Positions 8,604 through 30,507 of a DNA stretch of 32,000 nt are shown here, in pieces (position 1 is the first letter of the stretch; each line of letters begins with the position of its first letter). The DNA is from Candidatus Brocadia sp. GTDB taxonomy: Bacteria > Planctomycetota > Brocadiia > Brocadiales > Brocadiaceae. The stretch lies in assembly GCA_021650915.1 (NCBI GenBank), contig CP091279.1, positions 930,001-962,000 on the forward strand, given 5' to 3'. A program made the translations under genes and the position numbers. The notes under the pieces were generated by a model that was given only the letters and a program-made list of their open reading frames with translations, did not search any database and had not been told where the DNA came from.

Positions 8604-8650
8604 TAACGCAGCAGGCTGCTGCCAACTCTTTCCGGGCAAGGGGGAAACAG

Positions 8651-8880
8651 CATAGCGCGGCGCTGCCGCAACCAATTCCCTGTTGTGAAAACGGGAGATT
8701 GCTTCGGACAAGACCCTCGCAATGACACGGGCTATGTCTTTGATGACATATGGTACGTTGTCATTGCGAGCGAAGCAATCCTTCTCTTATAAACAAACGG
8801 TACCTTCTGGTAAGGGGTAAATAGGGTTGCGAAAAAACTTGCAAAAAAAGAAAAATTTTATACGGTAATATTATAAATAT
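8651..8880 (+). repeat. family 1 hairpin repeat copy
   Basis: Aligns by eye with 6375-6603, 17141-17366 and 30953-31172. Lies between the convergent 3' ends of nnrE and the GGDEF gene. Confidence 0.75.
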
Positions 8881-8928
8881 TCGGGGAAAACCTACGTGAA
8901 ACATTTGTCTGCATGGGTATGGTTGCAG

Positions 8929-14044: not shown

Positions 14045-17000
14045 TCATATCTTCCACCGGTAAAAGGAAAGCGAGCCGTTTTCAAGCGCCCATTTCTTCA
14101 GCACGATGGTCTGGACATAGAGGTCTTCCTTCATCGACAACGTGCCCTGAGCGCCCTTTTTCTCCATTTCTGACTCAAACTGGTCGATGAATTTCCTGAC
14201 GGCATCCTTTTCCAGATGGAGGCCCCTTTCCGTCTCGACAAAATCTTCCCGGCCAACAACCTTCAGGTTGATCAGGCGTATAATAAACCGGTCAATCCGC
14301 GCCCTGAACAGCTCTTCAATGTCGCACACAAGGGATTCATAGTTATCCTGCGGACTGTGCAAAAAACCCAGGTACGGATTCAGGCCAACCGCCCTCACCG
14401 TGGCATTGATACGGGAGAAGAGGAGGTAATAGCCCAGGTTCAGCAGGGAATTCATGCGGTCGGGACTCCGCCGGTCTCTCTTCTGAAGGGCAAAGGCATC
14501 GTCATCGATAAAGTTATTCAGCCTCTGGTAAATCTTCTTTGCCGCCGCCCCTTCCAGGCCGCGCACCTGCGCAACGTCACCTGCCTGATGCATCTGGCAG
14601 ATCACCCCTTCGAGTTCGCCGATAAACCGGTACTGCTCCTTGCGAAACCGCTGCTGAAAAAGGGCCAGGTAATTCTGCAGCTTGCCTGCGGCAAATTCCT
14701 TTGCAATACAGAGCAATTCGGTCTCAGAGAGTGAATAATACTTCCTCCCGTGTTCGTAAGAGACATCATAGTATTTTTTGGAATCCGGCTTCACCGTTGT
14801 GATGTAATACCCTGAGCCCAGCGCAATGGTGAGCGGGATATTGCCCTCCGTGCATTTCCTCAGCAGGGCGGTGGAAAATACGGTCTTTTCCATGACCATG
14901 ATCTCGCTGATCCGCCGCAACGGAATGGTCTCCACCACCTTCCTGTTCTTGCAAAGGTCAACGGCATCGCCATTCAGCGATAAAAACAGATACGGCTCTA
15001 CAATATATAATGGCTTCCGCAGCAGCTTCACGTCATCCTCGCCCTCCACCAGAACCGCAGACCTCTCGAACCGTATCCCCAGAAAATGAAACCCATCCCT
15101 GAGTGACCGAATAGCAGTCTTTTCTTTTTTTATCTTCAACCCCAACGTTGAAAGATACGACTCGGTATCCGATAAAACACCCTCTGCCTCTTCCTTCGTC
15201 CTGGTCAAAATAATAAAGTCATCTGCATACCGTATCAGCTTTACACCACGGGACGCATTGCCGCCTGCCGTCTTGTTTCCTGCGCCTCCCTTCGCATGGT
15301 CAGTCCCGGCATCCTCGTCGTGGCTGGCCAGACCCCACCGCTTTATCTGTTCGTCAAAGGAGTCCAGATAAAGGTTTGCAAGGATGGGGGAAAGCGGGCC
15401 GCCCTGGGCAAGCCCCTTTCTGCGTTCGTAATACGTGCCGTTCAGGATAAACCCGTTTCTTATCAATTTCAGCAGGATGTTTTTTAGGCAGACGTCATTC
15501 TGCGGAATAGAGCAGTCGAGCAGGTGTTCCAAAATATCCAGGTCCACGGATGGGAAAAAGTCCTCGATATCCGACTCGATCACGCACTGATAACCTTCGG
15601 CAATGGCGGACTGAATCATCCCGATAGACCGCTGTCGTGAGACCCCTTTTCTGAATCCAATGGATTCCGCTTCAAAAAAGCGGTCAAACACCGTTGAGAT
15701 GACCTTTAAAAGGTATTGCTGCACGATCAAATCCCGGAACGATAGCTGCTCAACGACCCGATCGACACCGCTCTTCTTCTTGATGGTAAAGGCAATGTGA
15801 GGGGTGGGCAGATAGCCATTACTGACGATGAGCTGAAAGAGATTCTCTGCGTACTGGTTTTCATCAAACGGGTACTTTTCCGTTTCCGACAGCGCCTGCA
15901 GCGCATGGTCATACCGGTTAATGACGTCGCGGATGACTGACACGATGATCTTCTTGTTGGGAAAGAAGGACTGAAAATATCCCGGCGACTCCTTGTGCAG
16001 GAGATAATATCCCTGGGAATTGGAGAGCTTTGTCCCGGCATGCACCTCGCTTCCCAGCAGCAAAAATGGCAGGAAATCCCTGAAACAACCCTTTATATAG
16101 AGCTTCCCCACGCAGCCATTGATGTATTGTGTCTGCCCCGGTTGGGACAGGGATGAGTGCCTGATCTCCGTGTAATTCCAGTAATACGGAAGGAGGGAAA
16201 ACCGGTCATCCTGACCGCGGTAAACGATCTCCCTGCCAAACAACCGTGAAAATCTCTTTTCCAGCGACCTGATAAATGCAGTCCTGGCAAGATAGGTGCG
16301 TGCCTTGCCCTTCTCCGGTTTAAAGGGAAAGGGGGTCAGAAATTCCAGACAGATTTCCCCTTCGTCCGGCAGGTTATCCGCCTCCCCGGCAAGCTGGCCA
16401 AAACTCCGTTCCTCAACGTCTCCCAGGGTAACTACCTCAAAATTCCTGCCCGTTACCGGGTCGGACAGGTACGCCTGAAAGGCGTCCCTCCATTGCCTGA
16501 CGTACCCATGCCCTTTTCTGAAAAAAAAGATATCCAGGGACACCTTTTCATACTCGCGCATCTTCAGGCTGTGCCTCCTGCCCCTGGCATGGAAGATAAT
16601 CAGCGGTTCACGGGCTTCTTCCCCTTTCTTGCCCCGGGGAGACTCACCGTCCGTTTCACCGTGTTGGGTTTCCCCGGCAGGCGACGTCTCCCGGGGTAGT
16701 GGTTCGGCGTCTCCTTCCGCCCCCCCTGTCCGTTCCTCACCAGGAACGGGAGAAAGATCCCCTGTCAACTCAGGAGACTCGTTCCCCATCAAAGGAGCCG
16801 GGGCAGGACGTGGGCATGCTGACGCTGCCGGGGATTCCTTATTGGGTAATAATGCGGCTGCGGAGGGCGATACAGGCAGGAGAGAGACCCCCTTCATGAT
16901 TGCCTGGAAGACGGAAAAGGGGTGTGCGGACATTGCCGGCAATGAACGGATATTCATTACCGTTGCCGACAGGCGATGCCAGCGCAGGTCTGAAAGGGGA

Positions 17001-17095
17001 TGCGCATCCTTTGCATTCACGGGTACCTTACTCCTCATACAACAGAAGCATTCATGAAGTTGCCGCCCGGCTGCAACGATCAGTAAAAGAGACAA
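14045..17095 (-). CDS. cas1: Cas6-like / reverse transcriptase / Cas1 fusion protein (type III adaptation enzyme)
   Basis: RT motifs: SDIEDFFPSVD, GLAQGGPLSPILANLYLD, LIRYADDFIILT and FHFLGIRF. Cas1 motifs: RGLEGAAAKKIY, NSLLNLGYYLL and GLNPYLGFLHSPQDNYESLVCDIEELFR. N-terminal RAMP-like region ends in the G-rich loop HAGTKLSNSQGYY. Start is uncertain: the conserved part begins near 16600 and ATG 16561 is an alternative. Confidence 0.9.
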   Translation of the reverse strand: MSLLLIVAAGRQLHECFCCMRSKVPVNAKDAHPLSDLRWHRLSATVMNIRSLPAMSAHPFSVFQAIMKGVSLLPVSPSAAALLPNKESPAASACPRPAPAPLMGNESPELTGDLSPVPGEERTGGAEGDAEPLPRETSPAGETQHGETDGESPRGKKGEEAREPLIIFHARGRRHSLKMREYEKVSLDIFFFRKGHGYVRQWRDAFQAYLSDPVTGRNFEVVTLGDVEERSFGQLAGEADNLPDEGEICLEFLTPFPFKPEKGKARTYLARTAFIRSLEKRFSRLFGREIVYRGQDDRFSLLPYYWNYTEIRHSSLSQPGQTQYINGCVGKLYIKGCFRDFLPFLLLGSEVHAGTKLSNSQGYYLLHKESPGYFQSFFPNKKIIVSVIRDVINRYDHALQALSETEKYPFDENQYAENLFQLIVSNGYLPTPHIAFTIKKKSGVDRVVEQLSFRDLIVQQYLLKVISTVFDRFFEAESIGFRKGVSRQRSIGMIQSAIAEGYQCVIESDIEDFFPSVDLDILEHLLDCSIPQNDVCLKNILLKLIRNGFILNGTYYERRKGLAQGGPLSPILANLYLDSFDEQIKRWGLASHDEDAGTDHAKGGAGNKTAGGNASRGVKLIRYADDFIILTRTKEEAEGVLSDTESYLSTLGLKIKKEKTAIRSLRDGFHFLGIRFERSAVLVEGEDDVKLLRKPLYIVEPYLFLSLNGDAVDLCKNRKVVETIPLRRISEIMVMEKTVFSTALLRKCTEGNIPLTIALGSGYYITTVKPDSKKYYDVSYEHGRKYYSLSETELLCIAKEFAAGKLQNYLALFQQRFRKEQYRFIGELEGVICQMHQAGDVAQVRGLEGAAAKKIYQRLNNFIDDDAFALQKRDRRSPDRMNSLLNLGYYLLFSRINATVRAVGLNPYLGFLHSPQDNYESLVCDIEELFRARIDRFIIRLINLKVVGREDFVETERGLHLEKDAVRKFIDQFESEMEKKGAQGTLSMKEDLYVQTIVLKKWALENGSLSFYRWKI

Positions 17096-17140
17096 GAAGT
17101 TACCACATCCCGCGTATCCTTGTACAGAAAAAATTGCAGA

Positions 17141-17366
17141 TCACAGCAAAGCCGCAGCCAATTCTCCGCTGAGAAAGCAGGAGATTGCTTCGGACAAGAC
17201 CCTCGCAATGACAATGGGCAGTATGTCCTTGATGACATACTGCCCATTGCGAGCGAAGCGAAGCAATCCTTCTCTTATAAACAAACGGTACCCTTCTGAT
17301 AAGGGGTAAATAGGGTTGCAAACAACCTTACAAAAAAAGCGCCTTTTTACACAGCAATATTATACC
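17141..17366 (+). repeat. family 1 hairpin repeat copy
   Basis: Aligns with the other three copies. Sits immediately upstream of the Cas6-RT-Cas1 ORF. Confidence 0.75.
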
Positions 17367-17500
17367 GTTATGCAATCATGGTTAACCCCATAGGGGTGGC
17401 ATAGCATCGTTCTTTTACCAATATTTCACCCCTGCGGGGTTGAATATCGTGGTGCGTTTTTTCCTACAATCATGTCATCCCTTCGGGATTTTTCAAAAAA
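17367..17500 (+). repeat. family 3 repeat (AACCCC-N-AGGGGTG...CACCCCTGCGGGGTT long hairpin followed by ATCCCTTCGGGATTTTT)
   Basis: Near-identical second copy at 21257-21388. Confidence 0.7.
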
Positions 17501-17704
17501 CTAAATTGTTACGATAAATCCAGTCTTAATATGCAGTCCTTCCAGTCGCCCGATCAATTCGTCCCTCCCCCTCTTATTCAGCCTGCATTCAAAGACGCTC
17601 TTCTGCACCCAAAACCCGAACCCCTTCAGTACCTTATCCACCCTCTCCCGTTTCGCGTCGGAGGTGATGTCATACACCACGGCATAGTCAGATATCCCTT
17701 TCAT
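17501..17704 (-). pseudogene. cas2: 3'-truncated second copy of cas2 (67 codons)
   Basis: About 195 bp (17514-17709) differ at only 4 positions from 20944-21141. Homology to full-length cas2 ends after ...HIKTGFI, where family 3 repeat sequence takes over. Confidence 0.8.
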
Positions 17705-17766
17705 AGATTTTCAACGTCCCCCCGTCTGGTTCAATCGTGGACGATTGAACCAGCCAGGTTCGTGAT

Positions 17767-17833: not shown

Positions 17834-18250
17834 CTATCGAATCCAAAGGAAAGCGACCTCACCCTTTTTATCAAGAGTGTCGAACTCATGGTGGTCTGCC
17901 GTCATGATTCTTGCGCCTCTCGTCTTTGCCTCTGCAAGGGCGAGTGAATCGGCAAGAGATATTCTGTAAATTGCTTTTAACCTTCCTGCCTCTTTAAACA
18001 CAGCATCTTCCAACGTATCAATTGTTTGTAGTGGCAACGCCAGTATCTTGCTGAGGATTCCTTCAGCTTTGCCCTTGCCTTCTTCACGAAACACTCCGTA
18101 ATAAACCTCAGGCATGTTTATCTTGTTCATGTAAACGACACACTCTTCTTCGAACGCTTTTAAGAGTATGGCCTCAACTTTATCTGAGCCATCTTCATCA
18201 TTCAAAAAAGCAATAAGGGCACAGGCATCCAACACAAAGGCGTCTTTCAT
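17834..18250 (-). CDS. vapC: PIN-domain toxin (VapC family)
   Basis: 138 aa. N-terminal FVLDACALIAFL with a conserved acidic residue. TAATG one-base overlap with the upstream antitoxin ORF. Confidence 0.85.
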   Translation of the reverse strand: MKDAFVLDACALIAFLNDEDGSDKVEAILLKAFEEECVVYMNKINMPEVYYGVFREEGKGKAEGILSKILALPLQTIDTLEDAVFKEAGRLKAIYRISLADSLALAEAKTRGARIMTADHHEFDTLDKKGEVAFLWIR

Positions 18251-18468
18251 TATTCCAGTTCCTTTTCTTCTTTTTTCAGTCTCATATATTTTTCAGAAGA
18301 AAAATGGCTGCCTTTTAAGGAACCTCTTGCGTTCTTAATTTGGTTTTCTATTGGTTTTATCAGAATTCCTTCTTTTGTTTCGATAAATTCAACCTCTTTT
18401 CCTTTTAGCTTTCTTGCTATTTCTTCCGGAAGATTCAATCGATCTGATTTTATTACAAGAGTTTTCAT
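18250..18468 (-). CDS. vapB: AbrB/SpoVT-type antitoxin (VapB-like)
   Basis: MKTLVIKSDRLNLPEEIARKLKGKEVEFIETKEGILIKP resembles a swapped-hairpin antitoxin fold. The ORF is open from 18510; ATG 18468 is preferred. Confidence 0.7.
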   Translation of the reverse strand: MKTLVIKSDRLNLPEEIARKLKGKEVEFIETKEGILIKPIENQIKNARGSLKGSHFSSEKYMRLKKEEKELE

Positions 18469-18543
18469 GCCTGTAACCTTTCTAAGCGTAAAGTTAATAA
18501 AAGTATCCAATTATATTAACATTATGGTAAGTCTGTATCAAGT

Positions 18544-19138
18544 TTATAAATCAGGTGTTCCCCTTGCAGCATGCCATATTCTTACCATTTCAATTACCTT
18601 CTTGTTCCTTTTGACCCGATAGACAATTCGGTAAGGATTTTTCATTAGGCCTTCGGCGACTTCCCCCCCCTGTTTCCCCTCGCAAACAGGGGAAACAAAT
18701 AATGTCTCTCCCCGTTTACGGGGGGATTATGGGGGGTGTTTAAAATTCCTTACATTGAATCAGGCCATCGGCGACTTTTCATTATAAGGTTAAACCCACC
18801 CCTGAATCCCCTCCCAGGAGGGGACTTCTTTCGTCCCCTCTTGAGACTTCGTCGTGAGCTCAGTCGACCGAGGGGGTTGGGGGTGTGTAAGGCAGGAGCA
18901 AAAAGATTGGAATTCCCATACATTTAATGTAGAGCGACGAGGCTCGTCGCTCTACAACCGCATCTCGAAATTCCGGGACAACGCTACCTGATGCGGGAAA
19001 TTTTGGAAGTTGCTTTATGTGGTGGAGTATTTTGTTTCGAAATTGATTTGCAGCAGGGAGATTATTTTCCGCGATGAAAAGAATGATGTCCCGAAAGTCC
19101 AGCCTGGCAGTGGGTGACCACTCTATTTCGAGATCCAT
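18544..19138 (-). pseudogene. parE: ParE/RelE-family toxin gene split by a ~335-bp nested repeat insertion
   Basis: N-terminal fragment (19138 to ~18978): MDLEIEWSPTARLDFRDIILFIAENNLPAANQF...VVPEF. C-terminal fragment (~18640 to 18544): NPYRIVYRVKRNKKVIEMVRIWHAARGTPDL*. Family 2 repeat sequence lies between them. Confidence 0.7.
18641..18977. repeat. nested family 2 modular repeat insertion (two units plus the palindrome GTAGAGCGACGAGGCTCGTCGCTCTAC)
   Basis: Shares core, flank and palindrome modules with 4451-4681 and 25216-25489. Confidence 0.65.
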
Positions 19139-19287: not shown

Positions 19288-20672
19288 GTTTCAGTTCCTA
19301 CCATCAGAAATGTCCCCTCGTCCCTCGTCTTTCGTCCCTCGTCTTTTGTCTCTCTTTACCGTCTCAGTTCCTACCGGCAGAAAGATCCTTCCAGATCACG
19401 TTTTTAGGAGGGAAAGGCCGGATAAACGCTAGCGTAAACTGATTGGTACCTTAACCATCGACTCAACATCAAACATCGAACATCGAATGTCGAATTACGA
19501 GGTTTTCTTATCCTTCGACATTCATGATTCCTTGTTCGACATTCGATTTCTTTCTATCGTTTCAGTTCCTACCGGCAGGAATGTCCTTTCAGACATTACC
19601 GCGATTTTTTTTCTCCCCATAGCGATATGGTTTCAGTTCCTACCGGCAGGAATGTCCTTTCAGACTTTAAAACTACCGGTTTAACCATGAAGAGTTTGTT
19701 TCAGTTCCTACCGGCAGGAATGTCCTTTCAGACAAGAACATCGCGGTACTCGCGATGTTTCTACTGTTTCAGTTCCTACCGGCAGGAATGTCCTTTCAGA
19801 CATGCCACATCGAGGGATGTCCGGTGTTGGCCAAGTTTCAGTTCCTACCGGCAGGAATGTCCTTTCAGACAGGTGTTCAACACTATGGGGGGAACGCAGA
19901 GTTTCAGTTCCTACCGGCAGGAATGTCCTTTCAGACTTGTGTTTAACGGGCTCTTGTCCAGTGCTTGGGTTTCAGTTCCTACCGGCAGGAATGTCCTTTC
20001 AGACAATTGAGGAATTGCGAGAAAAGGGATTCTTGGGTTTCAGTTCCTACCGGCAGGAATGTCCTTTCAGACTTGTTGGGGGCAAAAAGGAGAGAGAATG
20101 GCTGTTTCAGTTCCTACCGGCAGGAATGTCCTTTCAGACATGGATTGGAAGGGAAAGGCGTTTGTGATACTGTTTCAGTTCCTACCGGCAGGAATGTCCT
20201 TTCAGACCAACCTGCGTGACGGTCGGTTGACCCCCTAGTTTCAGTTCCTACCGGCAGGAATGTCCTTTCAGACCTTCAGGCGAATCTTTCTCTTTCCGCA
20301 AGAAAGTTTCAGTTCCTACCGGCAGGAATGTCCTTTCAGACTGAGGTATTTAGTTTTACGCGGCATTTGATTGTTTCAGTTCCTACCGGCAGGAATGTCC
20401 TTTCAGACCATGGAAGTCACTTGCCCTCGTGGGCGTTTGTTTCAGTTCCTACCGGCAGGAATGTCCTTTCAGACTGTCAAGGAGATTACCATGAGCAAGA
20501 TTTGTTTCAGTTCCTACCGGCAGGAATGTCCTTTCAGACCGAACTGAACTGGGGCGGCGGCGATTTCAGGTTTCAGTTCCTACCGGCAGGAATGTCCTTT
20601 CAGACTGAGTTGGAAAGGAAAGGCGTTTGTAACACTGTTTCAGTTCCTACCGGCAGGAATGTCCTTTCAGAC
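19288..20672 (-). CRISPR. CRISPR array: 17 identical 36-bp repeats (19559-20672) with 16 spacers of 29-35 bp, plus two degenerate repeats at 19288-19323 and 19361-19396
   Basis: Plus-strand repeat is GTTTCAGTTCCTACCGGCAGGAATGTCCTTTCAGAC. The minus-strand form GTCTGAAAGGACATTCCTGCCGGTAGGAACTGAAAC ends in the canonical ...GAAAC tag region and matches the cas gene strand. Degenerate repeats lie at the low-coordinate (trailer) end. Confidence 0.95.
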
Positions 20673-20851
20673 TCTTCACTTTACAAGTCTTTATTTGCTG
20701 ATATGTTACATTGACAATATTTAGAACCTCCCCCAAAAACATCTTCAATGAGTGATTTTTCAGGGAGGTTCTCAATGGATGGGGTAAATTTGCATGTGCG
20801 GCAGGGTAAACAGTCGCCGTTTGGCTATAAGAACCGATGGTATACCTCCGT
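20673..20851 (-). promoter_or_regulatory. putative CRISPR leader between the cas2 stop and the first repeat
   Basis: AT-rich segment next to the perfect-repeat end of the array. Contains a 10-bp-stem inverted repeat AGAACCTCCC...GGGAGGTTCT (20723-20772). No promoter could be fixed confidently. Confidence 0.5.
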
Positions 20852-21136
20852 TTAGACAATAAATGCATGGCCGTCATCAATATTCGCCTTTTTCATCTGA
20901 CCGATTACGGTGTCCCTGGATGAGTATTCTAACCGATACACCTTGATAAATCCAGTCTTAATATGCAGTCCTTCCAGTCGCCCGATCAATTCGTCCCTCC
21001 CCCTCTTATTCAACCTGCATTCAAAGACGCTCTTCTGCACCCGAAACCCGAACCCCTTCAGTACCTTATCCACCCTCTCCCGTTCCGCGTCGGAGGTGAT
21101 GTCATACACCACGGCATAATCAGATATCCCTTTCAT
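20852..21136 (-). CDS. cas2: CRISPR-associated endoribonuclease Cas2
   Basis: 94 aa. VVYDITSD...RVQKSVFECRL is the classic Cas2 ferredoxin-fold signature. Confidence 0.9.
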   Translation of the reverse strand: MKGISDYAVVYDITSDAERERVDKVLKGFGFRVQKSVFECRLNKRGRDELIGRLEGLHIKTGFIKVYRLEYSSRDTVIGQMKKANIDDGHAFIV

Positions 21137-21256
21137 AGATTTTTAAAGAACCCCTTTCTGACCCATGATATTTCAAACGCTCCTGCCCGGAGCAGAGACC
21201 GTCGCCCGGATCTCTTTCGTCCTTTCATAAAGGAAATTTGGTTGCGGCTGTGCTGC

Positions 21257-21388
21257 GTTATGCAATTATGGTTAACCCCGCAGGGGTGGCATAGTATCGC
21301 TGTTTTTCCGATATTTCACCCCTGCGGGGTTGAATATAGCGGTGCGTTTTTTCTATAATCATGTCATCCCTTCGGGATTTTTCAAAAA
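21257..21388 (+). repeat. family 3 repeat, second copy
   Basis: Near-identical to 17367-17500. Followed by hairpins at 21399-21423 and 21488-21502, which parallel 17726-17753 and 17767-17785. Confidence 0.7.
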
Positions 21389-21525
21389 GCTCCAAAGCTG
21401 GTTCAATCTTGCAGATTGAACCATTTATTTATTATGTATACTTCCTAACCCGAACGGGTCGGAAAAGTCAAAATCAGAAGCACGAGATTCATGATTCAAC
21501 CCTGTCAGGGTTAATTTTGCCCTAT

Positions 21526-22332
21526 TCATAATCCAGGACTCAGGAACCGTAAAAACGCTTCCCTTGTCATGGGGGTGGTTATCTCCGTGCCCCAGAACAG
21601 GGAGACCTTTTCGTCTCCGCCGGAATAGCCGCCGAACCGTTTCTGGAGGGCCCTGGCCCTTGCGGGAGAGCCGTAAAAGTTGATTTTTTGCATCGTATTT
21701 TCAGCGTCTACCGTGAATACGACCAAATCCATACAAAGTATCCTTTTCTCATTTTCGAAGAAATGCAGGTCTGACACATATGAGGTCTTTTCACAATTTG
21801 TCTCCACAACGTATAAATCCTGACCCCGATTACAGCCTTTCAGATAATCTCTTCTCAGCGTTTCAAAATATTCAGGTTTATACCCCTGGGCCTCAAGGTC
21901 ATACTGCCGTATCTCCAGCATTTCGTCTTCTGAGTATCCTTGTTTTCTTAATGCAGGAATATATCCCCGGTCATTCAGGGCAACACCCATCTGCCACCGG
22001 TTGAGGGTATATGAAATCAGGCAGGCGAATTGCTCCAGAGCGCTTACCGGATACAACCGCTTTAAATGCGGATATTGATGATGGTCCAGCACGAAGAGAT
22101 TGTGCCCTTTCTCTTGTAATTCCTTTTCTTTCAGAACATCCGGCATTTCCACAACAATCACGTGCCTCTTTAAATCGGCAAAGGTCTCATCGGGCTCCCG
22201 TGAAAGCACTGCCCCCCACCCTTGTGCTGATATGCGGACATCAAAAGATAACTTTTTAGCGATTTCTATAATCAAACGGCTTTCACCATCGTTGCACGGA
22301 CAGATTATGGTTGTGTTGGTGTTGTGAATCAT
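21526..22332 (-). CDS. DHH/DHHA1-like phosphoesterase (NrN/NrnA-like, CRISPR-associated)
   Basis: 268 aa. Motif I-like IICPCNDGES, motif II-like VIVVEMPD, motif III FVLDHHQ, and a DHHA1 GGGH-like FGGYSGGDEK near the C-terminus. Sits directly downstream of the CorA-like gene in the cmr operon. Confidence 0.6.
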   Translation of the reverse strand: MIHNTNTTIICPCNDGESRLIIEIAKKLSFDVRISAQGWGAVLSREPDETFADLKRHVIVVEMPDVLKEKELQEKGHNLFVLDHHQYPHLKRLYPVSALEQFACLISYTLNRWQMGVALNDRGYIPALRKQGYSEDEMLEIRQYDLEAQGYKPEYFETLRRDYLKGCNRGQDLYVVETNCEKTSYVSDLHFFENEKRILCMDLVVFTVDAENTMQKINFYGSPARARALQKRFGGYSGGDEKVSLFWGTEITTPMTREAFLRFLSPGL

Positions 22333-22410
22333 TGTTCAACGCTTAAATTGAAATACCATCTTATTTCCTGGACAGCACATGCCTTGCTCCTTCTGGGTTG
22401 TCACTATTTA

Positions 22411-24009
22411 CTATGGTTCTTTGGGAGAACACCACCGGGATAGCTTATCTTTAAGCCGTGATATCATTTTGCAGTTAACTGTATGCCTGAAGCGCGGACA
22501 AAAGAAAACAAATAATAAACCCATACCGAGAATAATCGCAATGATCTTAAAGGGCAGGGCATTTTTTATCTGGCAGACATCACATTGCAAAATACCCACA
22601 ATCAACCCCAGGATAAGAACAGGAAAGCCCACATACGTAATCATTGTCACTCTGCTATTGGTTTCTGCCTCTATTTTGTCTTCCACATATCCGGCCAATT
22701 CTGAAATCTCTCTTTGCAGTTCATCGTAGAGTTTTTCCAGATTCAGCAAACCCATCCATTGATCATAGATTTCAATTCCTTGCTCCTGTGGGGTAACTTC
22801 AATGAACCAGTATTTATTAACAAATTTTATAAATTCACCATGCAACCTGTCTGAGTCATCTTTGAGTTTTTTTGAACACCTTCCGGTTTCAAATTCACCG
22901 GTCAACCCATCAATATCCTCTGCAAACTTCAGGAGCATCGCCCGCTGAAAGAGGACAATCAGGGCTATCTGGTAATACATGGATTTCATGTGCTGTTTCA
23001 AATATGACGGGGCATCCGTGGCGCAGAGCAACACGAAACTGTACCGGCTCATGCCAAACAATGACCCACTCTTTGCCCATCGGGCGTAGGTGTGTCTTCG
23101 TATTAAATCGTATTTCATCGCATCGTTTTCAATATTGGCGTAATTCCCGTCAACAAAGATAAAACGATACCAGTCATCGGACGTCTCATAAACATAGCCA
23201 GCGCAGCATCTATCTTGCAGTTCTTTCGATTTCGCATTATCCGAGTAATACGAAACGATAAACATGCGATCGTCAATGAAGGGGGTATAGTAAATCTTGC
23301 CGTTGTCCATTGACATGTTATACGTATGTTTCAAGTCAAAGGGAGCAAGGAGTTCTTTGATGATATTGCTTAAATACACAATATCTTTATACTTATCTTT
23401 GTACTTCGCTTCCTCAAGATCGATGGGTTTAAAATCCTCATGTATGAAATCTTTGGGGTCGCTGTCTTTGCATAAGGAAATTTTCACCGGGAGTATTTTT
23501 GATTCCAATTTGGGAGAACAGGTATTGTTTTCTCCCAGATACGGTGGATAGACCCTCCGTGCAATATCGTTATATCGGAGAAATGTCTGAAAATCGGTCT
23601 TGCTGTCTCCACGCTGTTTTTCGGTGGTTATGGTCAGCAGTCCAATCTGATTATCAAAGAGGTGGATATCGATTTCATTGACTTGTGTCTCCATCGTTTG
23701 TTGCATGTTGTTCGAATCATAATATTCCAGCTTTAAGGTATGAAAATCCGTTCGTTTCAGGAATTCCATCCCGACGTTCCCTTCTTTATTGAATATTGCC
23801 CGCTGAACATAGGGATGAAAGTAAGAGAACTCGTTGTAGTTCTTAATAGAATCAAGGGCATAATGTGCTATCGCCCAGCCTTTTTCGCTATCATTGTTGC
23901 CGCTGCTCAATATGTGAGCAATCTTATCAGGTTCTAAATTTTTTTTGTCTGCCCTTTCATACTTAAAGGGAAATATAAATATGGTAGAAAAGTCGTTGTT
24001 ATTATTCAT
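22411..24009 (-). CDS. CRISPR-associated CorA-like membrane protein (large soluble N-domain, stalk helix, two C-terminal TM helices)
   Basis: 532 aa. C-terminus NSRVTMITYVGFPVLILGLIVGILQCD-loop-LPFKIIAIILGMGLLFVFFCPRF-basic tail mirrors CorA N..M..LT...P...GMN topology, but without GMN. ATGA overlap with cmr6 (24006-24009). Confidence 0.6.
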   Translation of the reverse strand: MNNNNDFSTIFIFPFKYERADKKNLEPDKIAHILSSGNNDSEKGWAIAHYALDSIKNYNEFSYFHPYVQRAIFNKEGNVGMEFLKRTDFHTLKLEYYDSNNMQQTMETQVNEIDIHLFDNQIGLLTITTEKQRGDSKTDFQTFLRYNDIARRVYPPYLGENNTCSPKLESKILPVKISLCKDSDPKDFIHEDFKPIDLEEAKYKDKYKDIVYLSNIIKELLAPFDLKHTYNMSMDNGKIYYTPFIDDRMFIVSYYSDNAKSKELQDRCCAGYVYETSDDWYRFIFVDGNYANIENDAMKYDLIRRHTYARWAKSGSLFGMSRYSFVLLCATDAPSYLKQHMKSMYYQIALIVLFQRAMLLKFAEDIDGLTGEFETGRCSKKLKDDSDRLHGEFIKFVNKYWFIEVTPQEQGIEIYDQWMGLLNLEKLYDELQREISELAGYVEDKIEAETNSRVTMITYVGFPVLILGLIVGILQCDVCQIKNALPFKIIAIILGMGLLFVFFCPRFRHTVNCKMISRLKDKLSRWCSPKEP

Positions 24010-24767
24010 GTGAAATACCCGTAAAACACACTGGTTTTCGCCCCAACGCCAAATTCAGACAGGGCGTATTTTAAAATATTTTCCGTCTTTTTTAAAAGAG
24101 GCGACTCCTTATCCCTGAGATTTTTCCTGTGGGCCAGACGGAAACAGTATTTCTCCCCTGCGGGAACGGTCAAAAAATGGAGCGGAAGCGGTGAATACCA
24201 GTCAGCAGGCGGGTTATTGACGGGGTCTGAATAATATTTACTGTAATGAGGCGTCATAACGTCCAATTCCAGAAATGGTTTGTTATTGTCAATTAAACAG
24301 GGGTAGGCGGGGAAGAAGACAATCTCTCCTGCCTGAGCATCTCCGTTTTCTGCCCCAAAAATCCCGGCAATATCGTCATGGTTGTCTGTTTCAGCGGCAT
24401 ATCGCGCTATGCCCTTTAAAGAGCTCCCCGGAATGACCGGCAGACCGCTCGTCCAGTCAAAGGCGAAACCGATCTCCGTTGGGTGTTCGTAACCCATGCC
24501 AAAGACAAGGCGGGAAACAGTGGTCATGGTGAAGGTGATGCCGATGCCTTCCATAAGCCTTTTTCTGTTTTCAAATGCCTCTCGATATGCTTTGCTCTTT
24601 GATAAGGTAATGAAGGATTCGAAAAACTTACCCTTTCTCTTGCTGTCAACCTCCTGGAATTTATTGTCGTTATAAATATCCGCCCACTTATAATATTTAA
24701 GGGACAGGTTAGGGGTTGATAAATTATCCGTATTACCTCTTATATCTTTAGGAAGCGGGAGTTTCAT
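24006..24767 (-). CDS. cmr6: type III-B RAMP protein Cmr6
   Basis: 253 aa. GLPVIPGSSLKGIARY, a C-terminal G-rich loop FGVGAKTSVFYGYF, and MTPHY. Confidence 0.85.
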   Translation of the reverse strand: MKLPLPKDIRGNTDNLSTPNLSLKYYKWADIYNDNKFQEVDSKRKGKFFESFITLSKSKAYREAFENRKRLMEGIGITFTMTTVSRLVFGMGYEHPTEIGFAFDWTSGLPVIPGSSLKGIARYAAETDNHDDIAGIFGAENGDAQAGEIVFFPAYPCLIDNNKPFLELDVMTPHYSKYYSDPVNNPPADWYSPLPLHFLTVPAGEKYCFRLAHRKNLRDKESPLLKKTENILKYALSEFGVGAKTSVFYGYFT

Positions 24768-25146
24768 CGCCTCTCTCCTTATTGGTTTTTATATAAAATG
24801 CAAGGGCAAATTTTTTCATCCACCCTGCGTATTCAATTGCCTCTTTTTGTCTGAGGGCATATTCTTTTACTTCCATATTCAAAATGGCATCAATCAGATT
24901 GTCCTCTCCAAACAGTTTTTTGAAAACATCAACAATGTCTTCGTACCCCTCCTTGCTCTGCAAATAGGCAATGGTCTGGCCAAGGCCGTTCTGCATAATC
25001 ATTGGCGGCAGGCCTTTCAGGAAATTGACCTTTGTTTCGTCCAGTTTCTGTATCATTTCCTGCATGAGCGGCAAAACCTTCCCTCCCCGCGCTACGGATG
25101 CGGGCTGTAACTTTTTACCGCCGTCTGTCCCTGTTATATCAGCCAT
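24748..25146 (-). CDS. cmr5: type III-B small subunit Cmr5 (Cas11 family)
   Basis: 132 aa, helical. MQNGLGQTIAYLQSK is a Cmr5-type motif. Position between cmr4 and cmr6; GGGGAGGG RBS upstream. Confidence 0.8.
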   Translation of the reverse strand: MADITGTDGGKKLQPASVARGGKVLPLMQEMIQKLDETKVNFLKGLPPMIMQNGLGQTIAYLQSKEGYEDIVDVFKKLFGEDNLIDAILNMEVKEYALRQKEAIEYAGWMKKFALAFYIKTNKERGDETPAS

Positions 25147-25215
25147 TTTGCCCTCCCCATGGTTTAATCTTTGATAAAATATGGCAACATCTTCGGCAAA
25201 AATTAAGAACGCAAT

Positions 25216-25489
25216 TCAATCATGCCTTCAGTGACCTTCTCAATGTAGGGCGACGAGGCTCGTCGCTCTACAATTCTACAACCGCAACTTTGAAATTCCT
25301 GCACATTGGATTAGACCTTATCGATTTTTTATCATACGATAAAACCCACCCCTGAATCCCCTCTTTCTAGAGGGGAATTACAAAAGATTGAAATTCCTTA
25401 CATTTAATCAACCCTATCAGGGTTTAAAACCCTGACAGGGTTGACTCACGAATTCTGCGCATCGGACTTCGTCGTGAGCGCTCAGTCGA
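25216..25489. repeat. family 2 modular repeat plus tandem AACCCT..AGGGTT hairpins filling the cmr4-cmr5 gap
   Basis: Palindrome GTAGGGCGACGAGGCTCGTCGCTCTAC, core ACCCACCCCTGAATCCCCTC, TTGAAATTCCTTACATT flank, hairpins at 25410-25442. The module GACTTCGTCGTGAGCGCTCAGTCGA is also present at ~18845-18870. Confidence 0.65.
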
Positions 25490-26366
25490 ACGATTTTATC
25501 TTTTCCGGCCCAACGGGGTTGGGCGTTTGCGCAATATTATGGCTCATCTTCACAAAACCATAGCCTATGGTCTCATTACCCCCTATCTGTAATATCCGCC
25601 CGGCAATCTTCGCGCATAATTTTAACATTACGTCATCACTGCCCCGGTAAGCAGGTTTCATGATCGTGTAGAAGACGGCATCCGCGGGCACAACTTCTTC
25701 ATACCAGAGGTTCTTACTCTTTTTGGTATCGTTGTCTAACACATTTCTGGCGATGACCTGTGTGGCAGTCGTGACAAGGGTTTTAAAGATATCGTCGGCA
25801 ACGATAATGAGCCTTTGCCTGAAAATATCTTCGGGAAAAAAATGCGGAACGGTAAGGCTTTTGAGAAATGCAAACAAGGCAGATGAAGATGCAGAGCCAT
25901 CTGCAACGGCAACCGGAAAGTCTTCCAAAATTACCCGACTGGCATAAGCAGGGCTCCGGAAGGCAATATTGTCGGCGGCTGCTTCATTTCGGGATATCCC
26001 AATAAACTGCAAATCGCGCTTGAGTCTCTCGATAACAAACGGGCAGGTGATCCACTTAAACACCCCTTCCGATGAGCGGACCGGGAAGAGGAGTATTTTG
26101 GCATCCGTAAAAACCACTTTGCCTGATGCGCTGTCTCTTTGATCATTGCCCTCTGTGCCAAAGATAGCGTTGATATCCGTCTCAGACGGTCCGTCCCATT
26201 CAAAAAAACACCGCAGGCTTCCCTTCATTGCGGATGAGAACACCACAGGATATTCCGTATGCTTCTCCCGCTGCACAGTCAGGTCAATTGCCCCTGCCGA
26301 GTCTCCTGCCCCTGCATGAAGCGGTGTGAGTGCATAAAAGGTAAATAAACTGCCGTTGTCAGACAT
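25482..26366 (-). CDS. cmr4: type III-B RAMP protein Cmr4 (Cas7 backbone/target RNase subunit)
   Basis: 294 aa. ALTPLHAGAGDSAGAIDLTVQRE carries the conserved Asp (D28) in the position of the catalytic Asp. SSAMKGSLR is also present. Confidence 0.9.
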   Translation of the reverse strand: MSDNGSLFTFYALTPLHAGAGDSAGAIDLTVQREKHTEYPVVFSSAMKGSLRCFFEWDGPSETDINAIFGTEGNDQRDSASGKVVFTDAKILLFPVRSSEGVFKWITCPFVIERLKRDLQFIGISRNEAAADNIAFRSPAYASRVILEDFPVAVADGSASSSALFAFLKSLTVPHFFPEDIFRQRLIIVADDIFKTLVTTATQVIARNVLDNDTKKSKNLWYEEVVPADAVFYTIMKPAYRGSDDVMLKLCAKIAGRILQIGGNETIGYGFVKMSHNIAQTPNPVGPEKIKSFD

Positions 26367-26378
26367 AATTTCTCCCCC

Positions 26379-27554
26379 CTATAACCTATGCCCATTTGCC
26401 AGAACGACATGGTTAAATCCCATGCTGGAATATGGCGTATTTTTCAGCTTTCTGTTATCATAATCCTGTACAAACTTTCTTATTGCCTCATCTGAGGTGG
26501 CTGCCGGCAACCTGAACAGATAAACCGCCCCTGCCGGAACCGCATTTTTTAAAGGTTTCAGAGATATTCCCTGCTGCCGGGTTGTTTTCGTATTTTTTTC
26601 AAAACTGTAACCGCTTACCCTGAGAGGTGGCCGGGTAAATGCAAAGAGCAGCTCGAGGTGCAGACCGTCCGCCTCAAATAGATTCTTCTTCTCTTCTTTC
26701 TGCCGGAAAGGTATCCAGCCTTGCTCAAATATGCCGTGCTGGAGCAGCGCCATTCTGAACGTCTTTGTTTTTATCATCTCAGAGATAAGCGTCTCTCTTG
26801 TTTGTCCGAATTTCTGTTCAAGAAGGGAATCAGAGGCAATGCCGCTCACATACACCAGATGCGATTCGCTGCCAAGCTTCAGGGCGCCGGCGGCAAGAGG
26901 TTTGTCCGTCGCGCAATAAAAGCCCATACGATCGCGCAACCGGTTGTACGGTGTGGTGTAGAATTTCGTTTCCTCCACCGTCCTGTTGTGTTCCCTGAGT
27001 TTTGCCGTATCAAGGGTGATGCCGACACGGTCTTCAGGCATCCAAAGCCCTTTCTCCGCGACTTCCATCTCATTCAGAGAAAGCCGGTACCTGCATATTT
27101 CCGACAGCGAGATAAATTCCGGCGGATACCGGTCGTCAAGTTTTCCGTCAGGGATAGTGGGACAACACAGGTCGAATCCGCAATCACTTTCCAACGACGC
27201 CATCTTTATCGGAAAGGCGGAATAACACCAACGATCCCCGTCATTCTTCCGGAAAAGATCGGAGGGCGTTTTGAAATAGATTTCCCCGGTATCAGCGTCC
27301 ATCAGATACGGGCCGGTAATATCCACGCCCAAGGTTTCATCGTTACCAATCTTTTCTCTCGCACGTTCCGCATCTGTCAGACTGCCGTGAGGATCAATCA
27401 GATGATGATCGGCAAGGAGTTTATTCCGGACAAAACCCTGGAAGGTTGACGGATACGGAGGGAATACCCCTTCTGTATACCATTCGCCAAAATGGAAGGA
27501 TTTATTACCCCTGAAGAACAATACATCGTAAGGTCTGACGAAATAATCGGGCAT
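26379..27554 (-). CDS. cmr3: type III-B protein Cmr3 (Cas5 family)
   Basis: 391 aa. N-terminal VRPYDVLFFRGNKSF is the Cmr3 signature. Position after cas10. Confidence 0.85.
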   Translation of the reverse strand: MPDYFVRPYDVLFFRGNKSFHFGEWYTEGVFPPYPSTFQGFVRNKLLADHHLIDPHGSLTDAERAREKIGNDETLGVDITGPYLMDADTGEIYFKTPSDLFRKNDGDRWCYSAFPIKMASLESDCGFDLCCPTIPDGKLDDRYPPEFISLSEICRYRLSLNEMEVAEKGLWMPEDRVGITLDTAKLREHNRTVEETKFYTTPYNRLRDRMGFYCATDKPLAAGALKLGSESHLVYVSGIASDSLLEQKFGQTRETLISEMIKTKTFRMALLQHGIFEQGWIPFRQKEEKKNLFEADGLHLELLFAFTRPPLRVSGYSFEKNTKTTRQQGISLKPLKNAVPAGAVYLFRLPAATSDEAIRKFVQDYDNRKLKNTPYSSMGFNHVVLANGHRL

Positions 27555-27556
27555 AT

Positions 27557-29242
27557 CTATTTATCTCCTGCTAAAAATCGGGCATATAAAAGCGCATTAA
27601 TCATTGCGTCAATACCCTCAAACTTCATCAAAAGCCCCACTATCTCCATAATTTCGGCGTTGGCTTTATCAACCCCTCTTGTTCCTGCAATGATGGTATA
27701 AAGATAGTTCTCTTTGTGCCTAGCATCAGTTATCGCCTTCAGAACCTCCTCTGACTCCTTTATGCGATAAGGCGTTGTCCGTGATATATCAGCGCTCAGT
27801 AGTAATTCCTTCAGCCTTTTTAAGTCTCCGATAAGTTTGTTGGAGAATGCGAAATTGAAAGTCTCTGTATGTCCTTTGATTAAAGAGATGGCGGTTGCAT
27901 TTTTACCCCTGAATTTCTTTGCCTTTCTGAGCATCCCGCAGGCAGAGAGTATCGCCTGTGACAACGGATATTTATGATAGCAAACAACAACCCCGGCAGA
28001 TAAGGTAAATTTTTCTGCCATAGGTTTAGTTAAATCATTTTTCAGAAAATAGCCGTTGTAGAGATTGTTCAATTCCCCGATGCAGTCGAGGAGATATTCC
28101 GGGTGGATGACGAAGTTTATATCCTCACCTCCGGCAAAGATAAGCTGTCCCTGATTACGCGAGACCGTGGCATTAACCGCATTTGAAAAATCTGATATTA
28201 TCCTTGAGACGTCTTGTATATAACCCGGGAATTTATCCCTGTTTTCCTTTAAAATATTTCCCATATTATCACCGTCCATAGAGATGATGCTATAGAAAGG
28301 ACGGTCGAGCCATGGTAGTTTTATCTTATCCTGATATTTTTCCGTCAACGACTTTTTCCACGCAGTAAACTTCTTTCTGAGATTCGGGTCATAAAAAAAT
28401 CTCCCCTCAGAGTCCTTCTCTTCTGAAATCTGCTCGCATTCCCTGATGAGCGCTTTGTATGCTTGTTTCATTTCATCATCTGCCGTATCAATGCATGCCT
28501 TGATTGGACTGAAAGCAATGTCAGAGGTGGATTGATAACGAGGTTTTTTTAATTCTGCCCTGGTACCCGAAAAAATGGACTTTACTGCCTCAGGCAGGAA
28601 TCTCTTTAACAGACAGACGCTGCAGATATGTTCTTCATTGTAAAGACCGGCATCTTTGTCCACTACTTTTGAATATATCCTTTTCCTGTCTCCGCACAGG
28701 CTGCATTTCTCCCATTTCGCAATCGAGTTGTTGCCGGTGATTTGCCTGAATGGTCTGAGGGCTGAACGTATCCTGATCTTACGTTCAGCCTCAAGAAATT
28801 CTTCAAAGGTGGGTTGTGCATCTTTAATCTCGTGTATCGTATAAAAGAAATGAAAGAAGTCTTTTAATTCGCCATGATCAAAAACACCTGCTTTTCCTTT
28901 TTGCTCCGCCAGTTTTCCCACTTTTAGAGCGATGGTCTTAACGATCTCTTCAATAATTGTTTTCAAACCATTTTCTATGGCACTCCTCCGGCTATCAGTA
29001 AAGGTGACATAAATCTGGTCGGGAACGCTTCCGCAAGCGATTGTCCCGTTCCGTCGATACATGGGGTTGTTATCAAGATACGGGAGAAACAGCGTGCCGC
29101 CGTTATTCGTAATATCCCTTGCAACCTCAGACATCACATAGGAAAAAAGGAAGGATGCGCCCCAGAAATCCACGGTCTTTCTGCTCTGCCTGACGAAGTC
29201 GTAGATAGGGCCTATTTCACAGATGAGGAGGTAGTTTTTCAT
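27557..29242 (-). CDS. cas10: Cas10/Cmr2, HD-less, 561 aa
   Basis: N-terminus IGPIYDFVRQSRKTVDFWGASFLFSY. Zn-finger CSLCGDRK...CSVCLLKR. Palm motifs SMDGDNMG and FAGGEDI (GGED at 28121-28132). No H-D motif region upstream. Confidence 0.9.
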   Translation of the reverse strand: MKNYLLICEIGPIYDFVRQSRKTVDFWGASFLFSYVMSEVARDITNNGGTLFLPYLDNNPMYRRNGTIACGSVPDQIYVTFTDSRRSAIENGLKTIIEEIVKTIALKVGKLAEQKGKAGVFDHGELKDFFHFFYTIHEIKDAQPTFEEFLEAERKIRIRSALRPFRQITGNNSIAKWEKCSLCGDRKRIYSKVVDKDAGLYNEEHICSVCLLKRFLPEAVKSIFSGTRAELKKPRYQSTSDIAFSPIKACIDTADDEMKQAYKALIRECEQISEEKDSEGRFFYDPNLRKKFTAWKKSLTEKYQDKIKLPWLDRPFYSIISMDGDNMGNILKENRDKFPGYIQDVSRIISDFSNAVNATVSRNQGQLIFAGGEDINFVIHPEYLLDCIGELNNLYNGYFLKNDLTKPMAEKFTLSAGVVVCYHKYPLSQAILSACGMLRKAKKFRGKNATAISLIKGHTETFNFAFSNKLIGDLKRLKELLLSADISRTTPYRIKESEEVLKAITDARHKENYLYTIIAGTRGVDKANAEIMEIVGLLMKFEGIDAMINALLYARFLAGDK

Positions 29243-30507
29243 AGTTTAAACTCTATGGGTGTTATCCCGCTCAATTGCTGACGGATAAATTCATCAAACA
29301 CCGTGTTATTGTGTACATATTTTCCGTTATTATTGTCTATCAGTATATCCATGCCTTGTGCTGGATTTGAAATCATAAAGAGAAAGGCAGGGTAATAGTG
29401 CTTCCCAATCTTATGGACACTGATCAATACAGGACTTGCAAAGCGATCGCCAATACCTTTGCCAGGTTCTTCTTTACGCTTTACCATTGCCTTATTTCCA
29501 TTGCTAAATCTGTATCCAATCGGAAGCCCAAAGACAGGCTTTTTCAGTCTATTTATATTATTATTCAGGACGGCAGATTTATCAGGCTGATATTCCTGCC
29601 TGAAATATTGAAATCTCTTGCCTGCTTCATTTAAAGCAAGTTCCCATGTTGTATACGGAATTTTGTCTAACGTCTCATTGCAAGTAACAGGTGTTTTATT
29701 TTCAATAAAAAACAATCTCGCATTTACCATATTTGTGTATTTTGTGCTGGAAATGCTTGATATACCCTTCCGTTGCCTGTATTGTTTCCAGCCCATCAGC
29801 CCCTGATCGACTAATTCTTTATGGCTATTTAAATCTTTGGCGGGGCAAAAATCAAAATGTTTCAAGACATCATCATGAAATGGCTTTGGTAAAATATCTA
29901 CCTGATTTGATTGTAACTTTCCAAACCCGCGCCTCGCCCTGTTACCAAAACCACCAAAATGAAGTGCAAACCAGAAGGAAATGAGGGCGTTTTCAAATGC
30001 CTGTTTGTCCACAGATGTCATAATCAGATCAAAAGTAGAGCCATGGGTAATAAACTTTCTTATATCAATTTTTCCCTCACGTGTCGTCTTAACATAATTG
30101 ATATAAGCCAGATACTGATAACCATTCAGTGGATAATTTTTGCCCTCTACCTTTGAACACTGATAATTTGCCCAGCAGGTATTGCGCCATTCCTTTATCT
30201 CTATCTTTGGATTTTCAATTCTTATTTTTATCTTTGAAGCAACGTCTGTGCTTCCGAATATCTCGTCTTCTGATCTCTTTAATAGTTCAAGATTATCCCC
30301 GCCGAAAATAGCTCTGAACCACCACCGTAATACCCCTTTCAGAGAAGGAACCCGCAATTCAGCGGTTTTTAACTTTTCTTGCCAATTTATTGTTGTCTTT
30401 CCTTGTTTATTTTTACGAGTTTCAGAGAATTTTTTACCATCCGCAATTTCCCCATTACTCATCATCAAGGGTGTTATTACCTCTAATTTGAAATTGGCTT
30501 TATACAT
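29239..30507 (-). CDS. cmr1: type III-B RAMP protein Cmr1
   Basis: 422 aa. LEVITPLMMSNGE...LRVPSLKGVLRWWFRAIFGG. GAGGAG RBS. ATGA overlap with cas10. Confidence 0.8.
   Translation of the reverse strand: MYKANFKLEVITPLMMSNGEIADGKKFSETRKNKQGKTTINWQEKLKTAELRVPSLKGVLRWWFRAIFGGDNLELLKRSEDEIFGSTDVASKIKIRIENPKIEIKEWRNTCWANYQCSKVEGKNYPLNGYQYLAYINYVKTTREGKIDIRKFITHGSTFDLIMTSVDKQAFENALISFWFALHFGGFGNRARRGFGKLQSNQVDILPKPFHDDVLKHFDFCPAKDLNSHKELVDQGLMGWKQYRQRKGISSISSTKYTNMVNARLFFIENKTPVTCNETLDKIPYTTWELALNEAGKRFQYFRQEYQPDKSAVLNNNINRLKKPVFGLPIGYRFSNGNKAMVKRKEEPGKGIGDRFASPVLISVHKIGKHYYPAFLFMISNPAQGMDILIDNNNGKYVHNNTVFDEFIRQQLSGITPIEFKL

Follow-up and report, generated by a model that had tools for sequence, protein, structure and literature searches.

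This study concerns a 32,000-nucleotide (nt) stretch of the genome of Candidatus Brocadia sp. (assembly GCA_021650915.1, contig CP091279.1, positions 930,001 to 962,000 of the forward strand), hereafter referred to as the window and used for all positions given below, and in particular a minus-strand gene that almost certainly encodes a fusion of Cas6, a reverse transcriptase (RT) and Cas1. Read 5′ to 3′ on the minus strand, the locus begins with cmr1, cas10, cmr3, cmr4, cmr5 and cmr6, which are followed by corA, a DHH/NrN gene, an intact cas2, a leader and a CRISPR array; beyond the array lie two repeat relics, a ParE-like fragment, a VapC/PIN gene with its partner, a truncated cas2, dispersed repeats and, finally, cas6-RT-cas1. 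The locus thus combines the fusion with a cas2 gene, a CRISPR array and the genes of a type III effector. An original prediction, made from the DNA letters alone, had recognised the fusion and its effector neighbours while mentioning neither copy of cas2. The observation on which it was founded is confirmed as real and as correctly identified in outline, and its interpretation is partly supported by the analysis presented here.

The original prediction was built on a 1016-codon open reading frame (ORF) with a TTG start, which is present in the ORF list of the window at 14045..17095 on the minus strand and whose numbering is retained here for amino acid (aa) positions (TTG 17095 = aa 1). The frame stands as described, although its start probably does not: GTG 17020 is the likely initiation codon, since AGGAG is located ten nt upstream and the same start was called in an identical public protein (P0001), yielding a product of 991 aa rather than 1016. 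The gene is open over 2976 nt with every RT and Cas1 catalytic residue retained, and the identical protein is present on nine public contigs derived from several sequencing runs. The idea that aa 1–165 represent a spurious extension of the ORF was ruled out because aa 30–72 are conserved throughout the family.

Pfam profiles identified three domains in the order Cas6, RT and Cas1 within this single chain, namely CRISPR_Cas6 (PF10040; aa 250–362, with 28.1 bits, the cut-off being 25), RVT_1 (aa 438–675, 3.7e-30) and Cas_Cas1 (aa 696–974, 3.6e-59), while the NCBIfam cas1 model matched at 8.9e-51. The same architecture was observed in more than 160 homologues. When the PDB was searched by sequence, the Cas6-RT-Cas1 protein of Thiomicrospira (7KFT) was the best match, at 8.6e-51 for a single-sequence query and at 1.1e-78 for a profile query. 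A full-length structural model (mean predicted local distance difference test score, pLDDT, of 79.9) was matched best by 7KFU_C, a protomer comprising all of Cas6-RT-Cas1 (E 3e-32 over 962 aligned columns), followed by Cas1 structures (template modelling score, TM, of up to 0.88 of target length) and then by a group II intron RT. Every defining feature of a Cas6-RT-Cas1 protein that can be tested by sequence or structure prediction is present. The domain profiles (RVT_1, Cas1 and Cas6 all matched) and the overall fold therefore bear out the triple fusion that had been proposed.

The Cas6-like region had originally been placed at aa 165–370; the region is indeed there, yet these boundaries are wrong, as the domain spans approximately aa 30–375 and is split by an insertion. 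The strand and helix at aa 38–72 constitute the first beta-alpha unit of the Cas6 fold and are conserved family-wide, and they are parted from the remainder of the domain by a 92-aa low-complexity insertion with pLDDT values below 50 in the models. An AlphaFold model of the N-terminus (aa 26–400, built on 115 sequences) had a mean pLDDT of 82.4, with 233 of the 375 residues at or above 90 and the low-confidence residues concentrated in the insertion. It displays a double RNA recognition motif (RRM) composed of two beta-alpha-beta-beta-alpha-beta units, and a Foldseek search of the PDB returned Cas6 proteins as all of its top 30 matches (E 1e-8 to 1e-3), among them the Cas6 proteins of S. solfataricus and T. 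thermophilus and the Cas6 domain of the Marinomonas mediterranea fusion (6DD5). The N-terminus thus carries the Cas6/RAMP fold whose absence would have told against the proposed fusion. The G-rich loop, likewise anticipated, reads H352-A-G354-TKLSNSQ-G362-Y; across 115 homologues H352 and G354 are retained in every sequence, as are E247, W306 and S317, while G362 is kept in 114, H169 in 96%, K68 in 95% and H58 in 77%.

The catalytic apparatus of the other two domains is equally well preserved. The YADD motif is intact where it had been reported, and the RT aspartates D509, D625 and D626 are present and do not vary in either of two alignments, one with 16 homologues and one with 70; in the same alignments the Cas1 residues singled out in the original prediction, E848 (in RGLEGAA), H913 (in FLHSP) and D925/E928 (in CDIEELF), are invariant, and their motifs align with those of the solved Cas1 structure 8D3P. 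The RT domain also matches the NCBIfam group II intron RT/maturase family TIGR04416 (group_II_RT_mat; 7.7e-53), covering profile positions 31–270 of 353, at a score of 179.8 bits against a cut-off of 300. Identification of the gene as such a maturase was rejected on this score and because no group II intron RNA was found: across the window, every Rfam family stayed below its gathering score.

Two insertions distinguish the protein from most of its family. At the Cas6 site, 56–93 residues are inserted in eight relatives, compared with 6–29 residues in the other 106 homologues; these eight comprise seven of the closest homologues (63–81% identical, mostly of the Brocadia family) together with P0067. 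The same relatives carry the second insertion, of approximately 29 aa, as a result of which the spacing from FDE to YADD amounts to 39 residues as opposed to about ten in 101 of 114 homologues; it is predicted to be disordered in the full-length model too. Both insertions evolve rapidly and occur in no relatives other than the closest ones, which are mostly of the Brocadia family; they are most simply regarded as neutral. That they are functional, as tethers or regulators coupling crRNA (CRISPR RNA) cutting, reverse transcription and integration, or as docking sites for a partner, seems rather improbable; if true, the protein would represent a distinct mechanistic variant of Cas6-RT-Cas1 and not a neutral embellishment of it.

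Table 1. Features of the cas6-RT-cas1 locus (window positions; aa numbering of the 1016-codon frame)
Feature	Position	Strand	Description or basis
cas6-RT-cas1 gene	14045..17020	-	991 codons + stop, probable GTG start; longest ORF extends to TTG 17095; product identical to P0001
Cas6 domain, first strand and helix (aa 30–72)	16880..17008	-	conserved W39, R41, R50, H58, P59, K68
Lineage-specific insertion in Cas6 alpha1-beta2 loop (aa 73–164)	16604..16879	-	P/E/A/G-rich, predicted disordered, 60–66% GC
Rest of Cas6 double-RRM domain (aa 165–375)	15971..16603	-	includes Pfam CRISPR_Cas6 match at aa 250–362
Cas6 G-rich loop region (aa 348–364: GSEVHAGTKLSNSQGYY)	16004..16054	-	alignment and model
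Group-II-intron-like RT domain (aa 411–680)	15056..15865	-	Pfam, NCBIfam, PDB match, model
Lineage-specific disordered RT insertion just upstream of YADD (aa 588–616)	15248..15334	-	alignment and model
RT motif 5, YADD (aa 623–626)	15218..15229	-	sequence and alignment
Cas1 integrase domain (aa 696–1016) with E848, H913, D925, E928	14048..15010	-	Pfam, NCBIfam, PDB match, alignment, model
cas2 duplicate, 3′-truncated	17501..17704	-	first 64 codons common with intact copy, 95% nt identity
Two degenerate repeat relics beyond trailer end of array	19288..19396	-	sequence comparison
CRISPR array	19559..20672	-	17 identical 36-nt repeats, 16 spacers of 29–35 nt; minus-strand repeat GUCUGAAAGGACAUUCCUGCCGGUAGGAACUGAAAC
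Inferred leader, 179 nt, cas2 to first repeat	20673..20851	-	deduced from how the repeats are oriented and from synteny
Intact cas2 (94 aa), immediately upstream of leader	20852..21136	-	profile and ORF scans
CorA-associated DHH/NrN gene	21526..22332	-	PADLOC DHH_CorA 6.5e-19
CRISPR-associated corA	22411..24009	-	PADLOC CorA 2.3e-103
Type III-B effector operon cmr1, cas10/cmr2, cmr3, cmr4, cmr5, cmr6	24006..30507	-	profile matches

Concerning crRNA maturation, the claim that the window contains no stand-alone cas6 held, as no Cas6 family match was obtained outside the fusion among the window ORFs of at least 200 aa and the smaller ORFs around the array, a search in which one antisense ORF inside cmr3 (26721..27449) was left aside. 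No separate Cas6 Pfam match was obtained either in any of six Pfam-annotated loci of relatives that encode a full type III operon, where a few neighbouring genes are unannotated. The repeat family adjoins a homologous gene in 16 loci (14 independent contigs), always on the strand of that gene. The 6-bp stem shows 96.4% pairing over the 14 different variants of the repeat, with compensatory changes in four of the six pairs; its covariation score was reached by none of 500 shuffles, pairing fell to 26–56% when the 3′ partners were slid by one to three columns, and the last seven bases (3′ CUGAAAC) are invariant. Such a pattern in the aligned repeats would be expected if the repeat were the substrate of a Cas6 enzyme with which it coevolves. 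The Thiomicrospira Cas6-RT-Cas1 protein cuts its own 35-nt repeat to 26 nt, and the Cas6 substitution R37A lowers cutting to 12% (PMC8102632). For the M. mediterranea MMB-1 fusion, the Cas6 domain is reported to be needed to make crRNAs as well as to acquire spacers from RNA (Mohr 2018, cited in PMC10828431). By analogy, the Cas6 domain of the Brocadia protein may be expected to cleave its repeat, and the earlier proposal that Cmr crRNAs depend on the fused domain fits this published biochemistry (PMC8102632; PMC10828431).

The array is taken to be transcribed on the minus strand, since on that strand the repeat ends in CUGAAAC and the degenerate copies are located at the end far from cas2. 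The leader aligns collinearly, at approximately 80% identity, with the cas2-leader-array stretch of a Brocadia relative (L004). Activity of the array is suggested by the 17 identical repeats and by a leader-proximal spacer that is a variant of an older one: the spacers at 20140–20171 and 20606–20636 are near-identical, the newer being the leader-proximal one, a relationship that points to a second acquisition, from a variant of one target. The core common to these two spacers had zero matches in viral contigs, and three 21-nt matches to it in metagenome contigs were treated as chance; in one of these contigs (L083) the match could be extended for neither spacer and repeats were absent, while another (L085) contained only low-complexity-looking ORFs. 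No spacer matched elsewhere in the window with up to four mismatches allowed, and self-targeting was thus not observed there. The two repeat relics (19288–19323 and 19361–19396, with 8 and 6 mismatches, respectively) lie 162 nt past the last perfect repeat.

The effector genes adjoining the array were also correctly named in the original prediction, as they specify a type III-B Cmr system with CorA and DHH/NrN proteins; the complete set of cmr1 to cmr6, CorA and a CorA-associated DHH/NrN gene is present, the assignment being made from the genes. Cas10/Cmr2 (27557–29242) is short, at 561 aa, and bears GGED in place of the cyclase motif GGDD. GC content is 51–56% in cas6-RT-cas1, 39–49% in the cmr, corA and nrn genes and approximately 45% over the whole window; this difference (14045–17020 versus 21526–30507) is consistent with separate histories of the adaptation and effector modules.

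The pairing of Cas6-RT-Cas1 with CorA/NrN, which had been thought unusual, is already known and is not unusual. CorA-1 type III-B loci were drawn with a fused reverse transcriptase-Cas1 in the paper that defined S-adenosylmethionine-AMP (SAM-AMP) signalling (PMC10600005), and the CorA/NrN system of B. fragilis uses an RT-Cas1 protein (PMC11346440). In our own comparison of 79 genome loci encoding relatives of the fusion, 17 distinct loci had Cmr genes captured in their flanks; a homologue of the CorA protein of the window was present in five of these 17 (in Aminicenantes, Deferribacterales, Bacteroidales, Spirochaetales and Ignavibacteriota), with an NrN homologue in three of the five. According to a 2024 study, moreover, RT-Cas1 and CorA in certain type VI-B systems have their origin in type III loci (PMC11662929). 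Other partners of the same adaptation module include Csx3/SAVED, Csx3 with a HEPN/nucleotidyltransferase pair, a Cas_APE2256-family protein and a Csx19-containing effector. In two loci (L092 9055–9990 and L093 9041–10000) an unannotated gene of 311–319 aa without a Pfam match is positioned between a Cas_APE2256-family gene and cas6-RT-cas1.

The stretch between the array and the fusion gene bears several marks of rearrangement. Of the two cas2 copies (17501–17728 and 20852–21160; 95% nt identity over 216 nt), the truncated one lies a short way upstream of cas6-RT-cas1. A palindrome-rich segment of 137 nt likewise occurs twice (17366–17502 and 21256–21391, 90–93%), in opposite order relative to cas2; both copies contain the same promoter-like site, on which we do not rely, and a promoter and terminator scan gave counts at chance level. 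Toxin-antitoxin genes (17834–18510 and 18860–19138) occupy the interval, consisting of a VapC/PIN toxin with an 86-aa partner and a ParE-like ORF whose match is confined to the first half of the ParE profile and part of which coincides with a dispersed repeat. Dispersed intergenic repeats belong to two families, one of approximately 240 nt (6372–6605, 8647–8882, 17133–17371 and 30950–31174) and one of approximately 200 nt (4469–4681, 18726–18957 and 25223–25363); cas6-RT-cas1 has one copy directly upstream, the gap between cmr4 and cmr5 contains another, and the four public contigs listed for the identical protein all break approximately 180 nt upstream of the gene, inside a dispersed element. 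The closest Brocadia relative (L004) possesses an identical repeat and the order cas2, leader, array, cas6-RT-cas1 without the extra 2.4 kb seen here, from which we conclude that the latter was a later insertion or rearrangement; the cas2-array-gene order recurs in L003, L004, L005 and L086. In Candidatus Brocadia sp. DTUAMX2 (L055, 10001–10699) only the last 699 nt of the gene are left, at 84% nt identity, and in Ca. Brocadia carolinensis (L018) a three-repeat array lies upstream of the gene while no cas2 was detected within 10 kb. The module seems to have been gained, rearranged and lost often in the genus.

Cas6-RT-Cas1 fusions have been catalogued since 2017 (PMC5513706, PMC5541045, PMC6013744), and solved structures are available (6DD5, 7KFT and 7KFU). 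The Thiomicrospira protein with its Cas2 (7KFT/7KFU; Wang et al. 2021, PMC8102632) is the best PDB match by both sequence and whole-length fold, and shares with the Brocadia protein the three-domain order in a single chain, linkage to a type III system and a repeat consisting of a hairpin followed by a short tail. It differs in that the N-terminal half of its Cas6 domain is too divergent for sequence alignment with the protein studied here, its RT motif is FADD rather than YADD, it has neither of the disordered insertions (aa 73–164 and 588–616), and its cas2 directly follows the gene whereas in the window cas2 is located upstream of the array. The fusion of MMB-1 (Silas 2016, Mohr 2018) is also linked to a type III-B system, and its Cas6 domain (6DD5) is a fold match to the protein (E 2.6e-8); according to the literature citing it, its locus depends on the fused Cas6 for crRNA. 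MMB-1 is represented in the PDB by 6DD5 alone, and no sequence match to this entry was detected; the two proteins are therefore probably members of different RT-Cas1 clades, and the ancillary CorA/NrN effector is a further difference from MMB-1. The type III-B system of B. fragilis that signals through SAM-AMP (Chi et al. 2023, PMC10600005; PMC11346440) likewise combines cmr1 to cmr6 with CorA, an NrN phosphodiesterase and an RT-Cas1/Cas2 adaptation module, and a short Cas10 is a further shared trait, with 561 aa here and a B. fragilis protein reported to lack an HD domain (Chi et al. 2023); in contrast, its cas6 is a separate gene and its RT-Cas1 has no Cas6 domain, and it encodes a NYN nuclease for which no gene was found here. 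Group II intron RTs (GsI-IIC RT, 6AR1) have homologous RT fingers and palm (3.6e-24; TMt approximately 0.59 by fold), while no maturase or endonuclease part was detected in the Brocadia protein. The only departures from known fusions are the two lineage-specific disordered insertions and the rearranged stretch with its duplicated, truncated cas2.

Based on these findings, the protein is an ordinary Cas6-RT-Cas1 fusion that is probably functional. We consider it likely, at a probability of roughly 0.8, that adaptation and crRNA maturation are carried out by this enzyme in a type III-B (Cmr) system with CorA and an NrN phosphodiesterase as ancillary effector, and equally likely that it works as described for such fusions, the fused Cas6 cutting crRNA and the RT assisting spacer integration. 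This reading is carried by the observed domain content, fold and conserved active-site residues, the absence of another cas6 from the window and the co-inheritance of the gene in its clade with a covarying hairpin repeat. The array would be transcribed on the minus strand from the leader beside cas2, and the N-terminal Cas6 domain would bind the 6-bp hairpin of each repeat and cut at its base, between ...GGUAGGA and ACUGAAAC, leaving an 8-nt 5′ handle, ACUGAAAC, on crRNAs that would be loaded into Cmr. The Cas1 domain together with Cas2 (20852..21136) would insert new spacers at the leader-proximal repeat, and the RT domain would allow RNA to serve as a source of spacers besides DNA. The cleavage site, the dependence of Cmr on the Cas6 domain and the acquisition of spacers from RNA are proposed here by analogy with the homologues of MMB-1, Thiomicrospira and V. 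vulnificus.

Several points weigh against this reading. The catalytic residues of Cas6 could not be assigned, as sequence profiles leave the N-terminus of the clade unaligned to 7KFT: no alignment was obtained before aa ~336 (profile position 238) with either the single sequence or a profile, and the published active-site residue R37 is not mappable here because the alignment begins only near the end of the Cas6 domain. A disordered 92-aa insertion lies inside Cas6 and a second insertion is situated beside the RT active site. The gene is not adjacent to cas2, and the truncated cas2, the toxin-antitoxin genes and the dispersed repeats between array and gene are evidence of rearrangement at the locus. 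Viral and metagenome contigs yielded no convincing protospacer. The absence of a second Cas6 holds for the window, and the genome may encode another elsewhere.

A further such point leads to the alternative that survives best, which is possible though on the unlikely side, namely that the enzyme works but draws its spacers mainly from DNA, so that the RT adds little to the array and RNA-derived acquisition is overstated. In vitro the Thiomicrospira Cas6-RT-Cas1-Cas2 complex favours DNA, ligating more than 99% of double-stranded DNA and 77% of single-stranded DNA as opposed to 25% of single-stranded RNA, from which it follows that acquisition from RNA may be a minor activity (PMC8102632). RT-Cas1 systems are reported to take up spacers from RNA and DNA alike, and the array itself gives no indication of where its spacers came from. 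Nevertheless, RNA has been shown to serve as a spacer source in vivo, in an RT-dependent manner, for MMB-1 (PMC6013744), V. vulnificus (PMC6821258) and a type VI-B system (PMC11662929), and the invariance of the RT active site within the clade argues for its use.

A role for the Cas6 domain as no more than a structural or regulatory partner of RT-Cas1 in acquisition, with Cmr crRNAs made by a stand-alone Cas6 elsewhere or by a host RNase, appears quite unlikely. The unassigned catalytic residues, the interruption of the domain by 92 aa and a Cas6 search that covered the window would suit such a role, as would the altered RT and ligation activity of a Thiomicrospira Cas6 active-site mutant, which points to roles of the domain beyond RNA cutting (PMC8102632). 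On the other hand, conservation of the whole Cas6 domain, including its G-rich loop, equals that of the RT and Cas1 parts; the covarying hairpin is as expected for a specific protein-RNA partnership; no separate Cas6 was matched in the window or in the six annotated loci of relatives; and the fused Cas6 proteins characterised to date cut their repeats (PMC8102632).

Decay of the adaptation module, with a gene intact on paper and non-working through its two insertions and its separation from cas2, is very unlikely: the truncated cas2 and the debris between array and gene, the gene remnant in L055 and the missing cas2 of B. carolinensis would be in keeping with it, yet the frame is open with all catalytic residues kept in a protein found identically on nine contigs, an intact cas2 and 17 perfect repeats remain, and the insertions are in frame and variable in length in eight relatives, and so have been tolerated over evolutionary time.

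The present analysis adds a well-supported Cas6-RT-Cas1 protein to the Brocadia (anammox) lineage, for which no mention of RT-Cas1 was found in the literature searched. The current understanding of such fusions is unchanged by this example, which illustrates how one adaptation module (cas2, array and cas6-RT-cas1) is combined with differing type III effectors and ancillary proteins across organisms. Loci of this kind join an RNA-capable memory module to a CorA/NrN set that in B. fragilis makes SAM-AMP, and they may provide useful material for asking about defence against RNA invaders.

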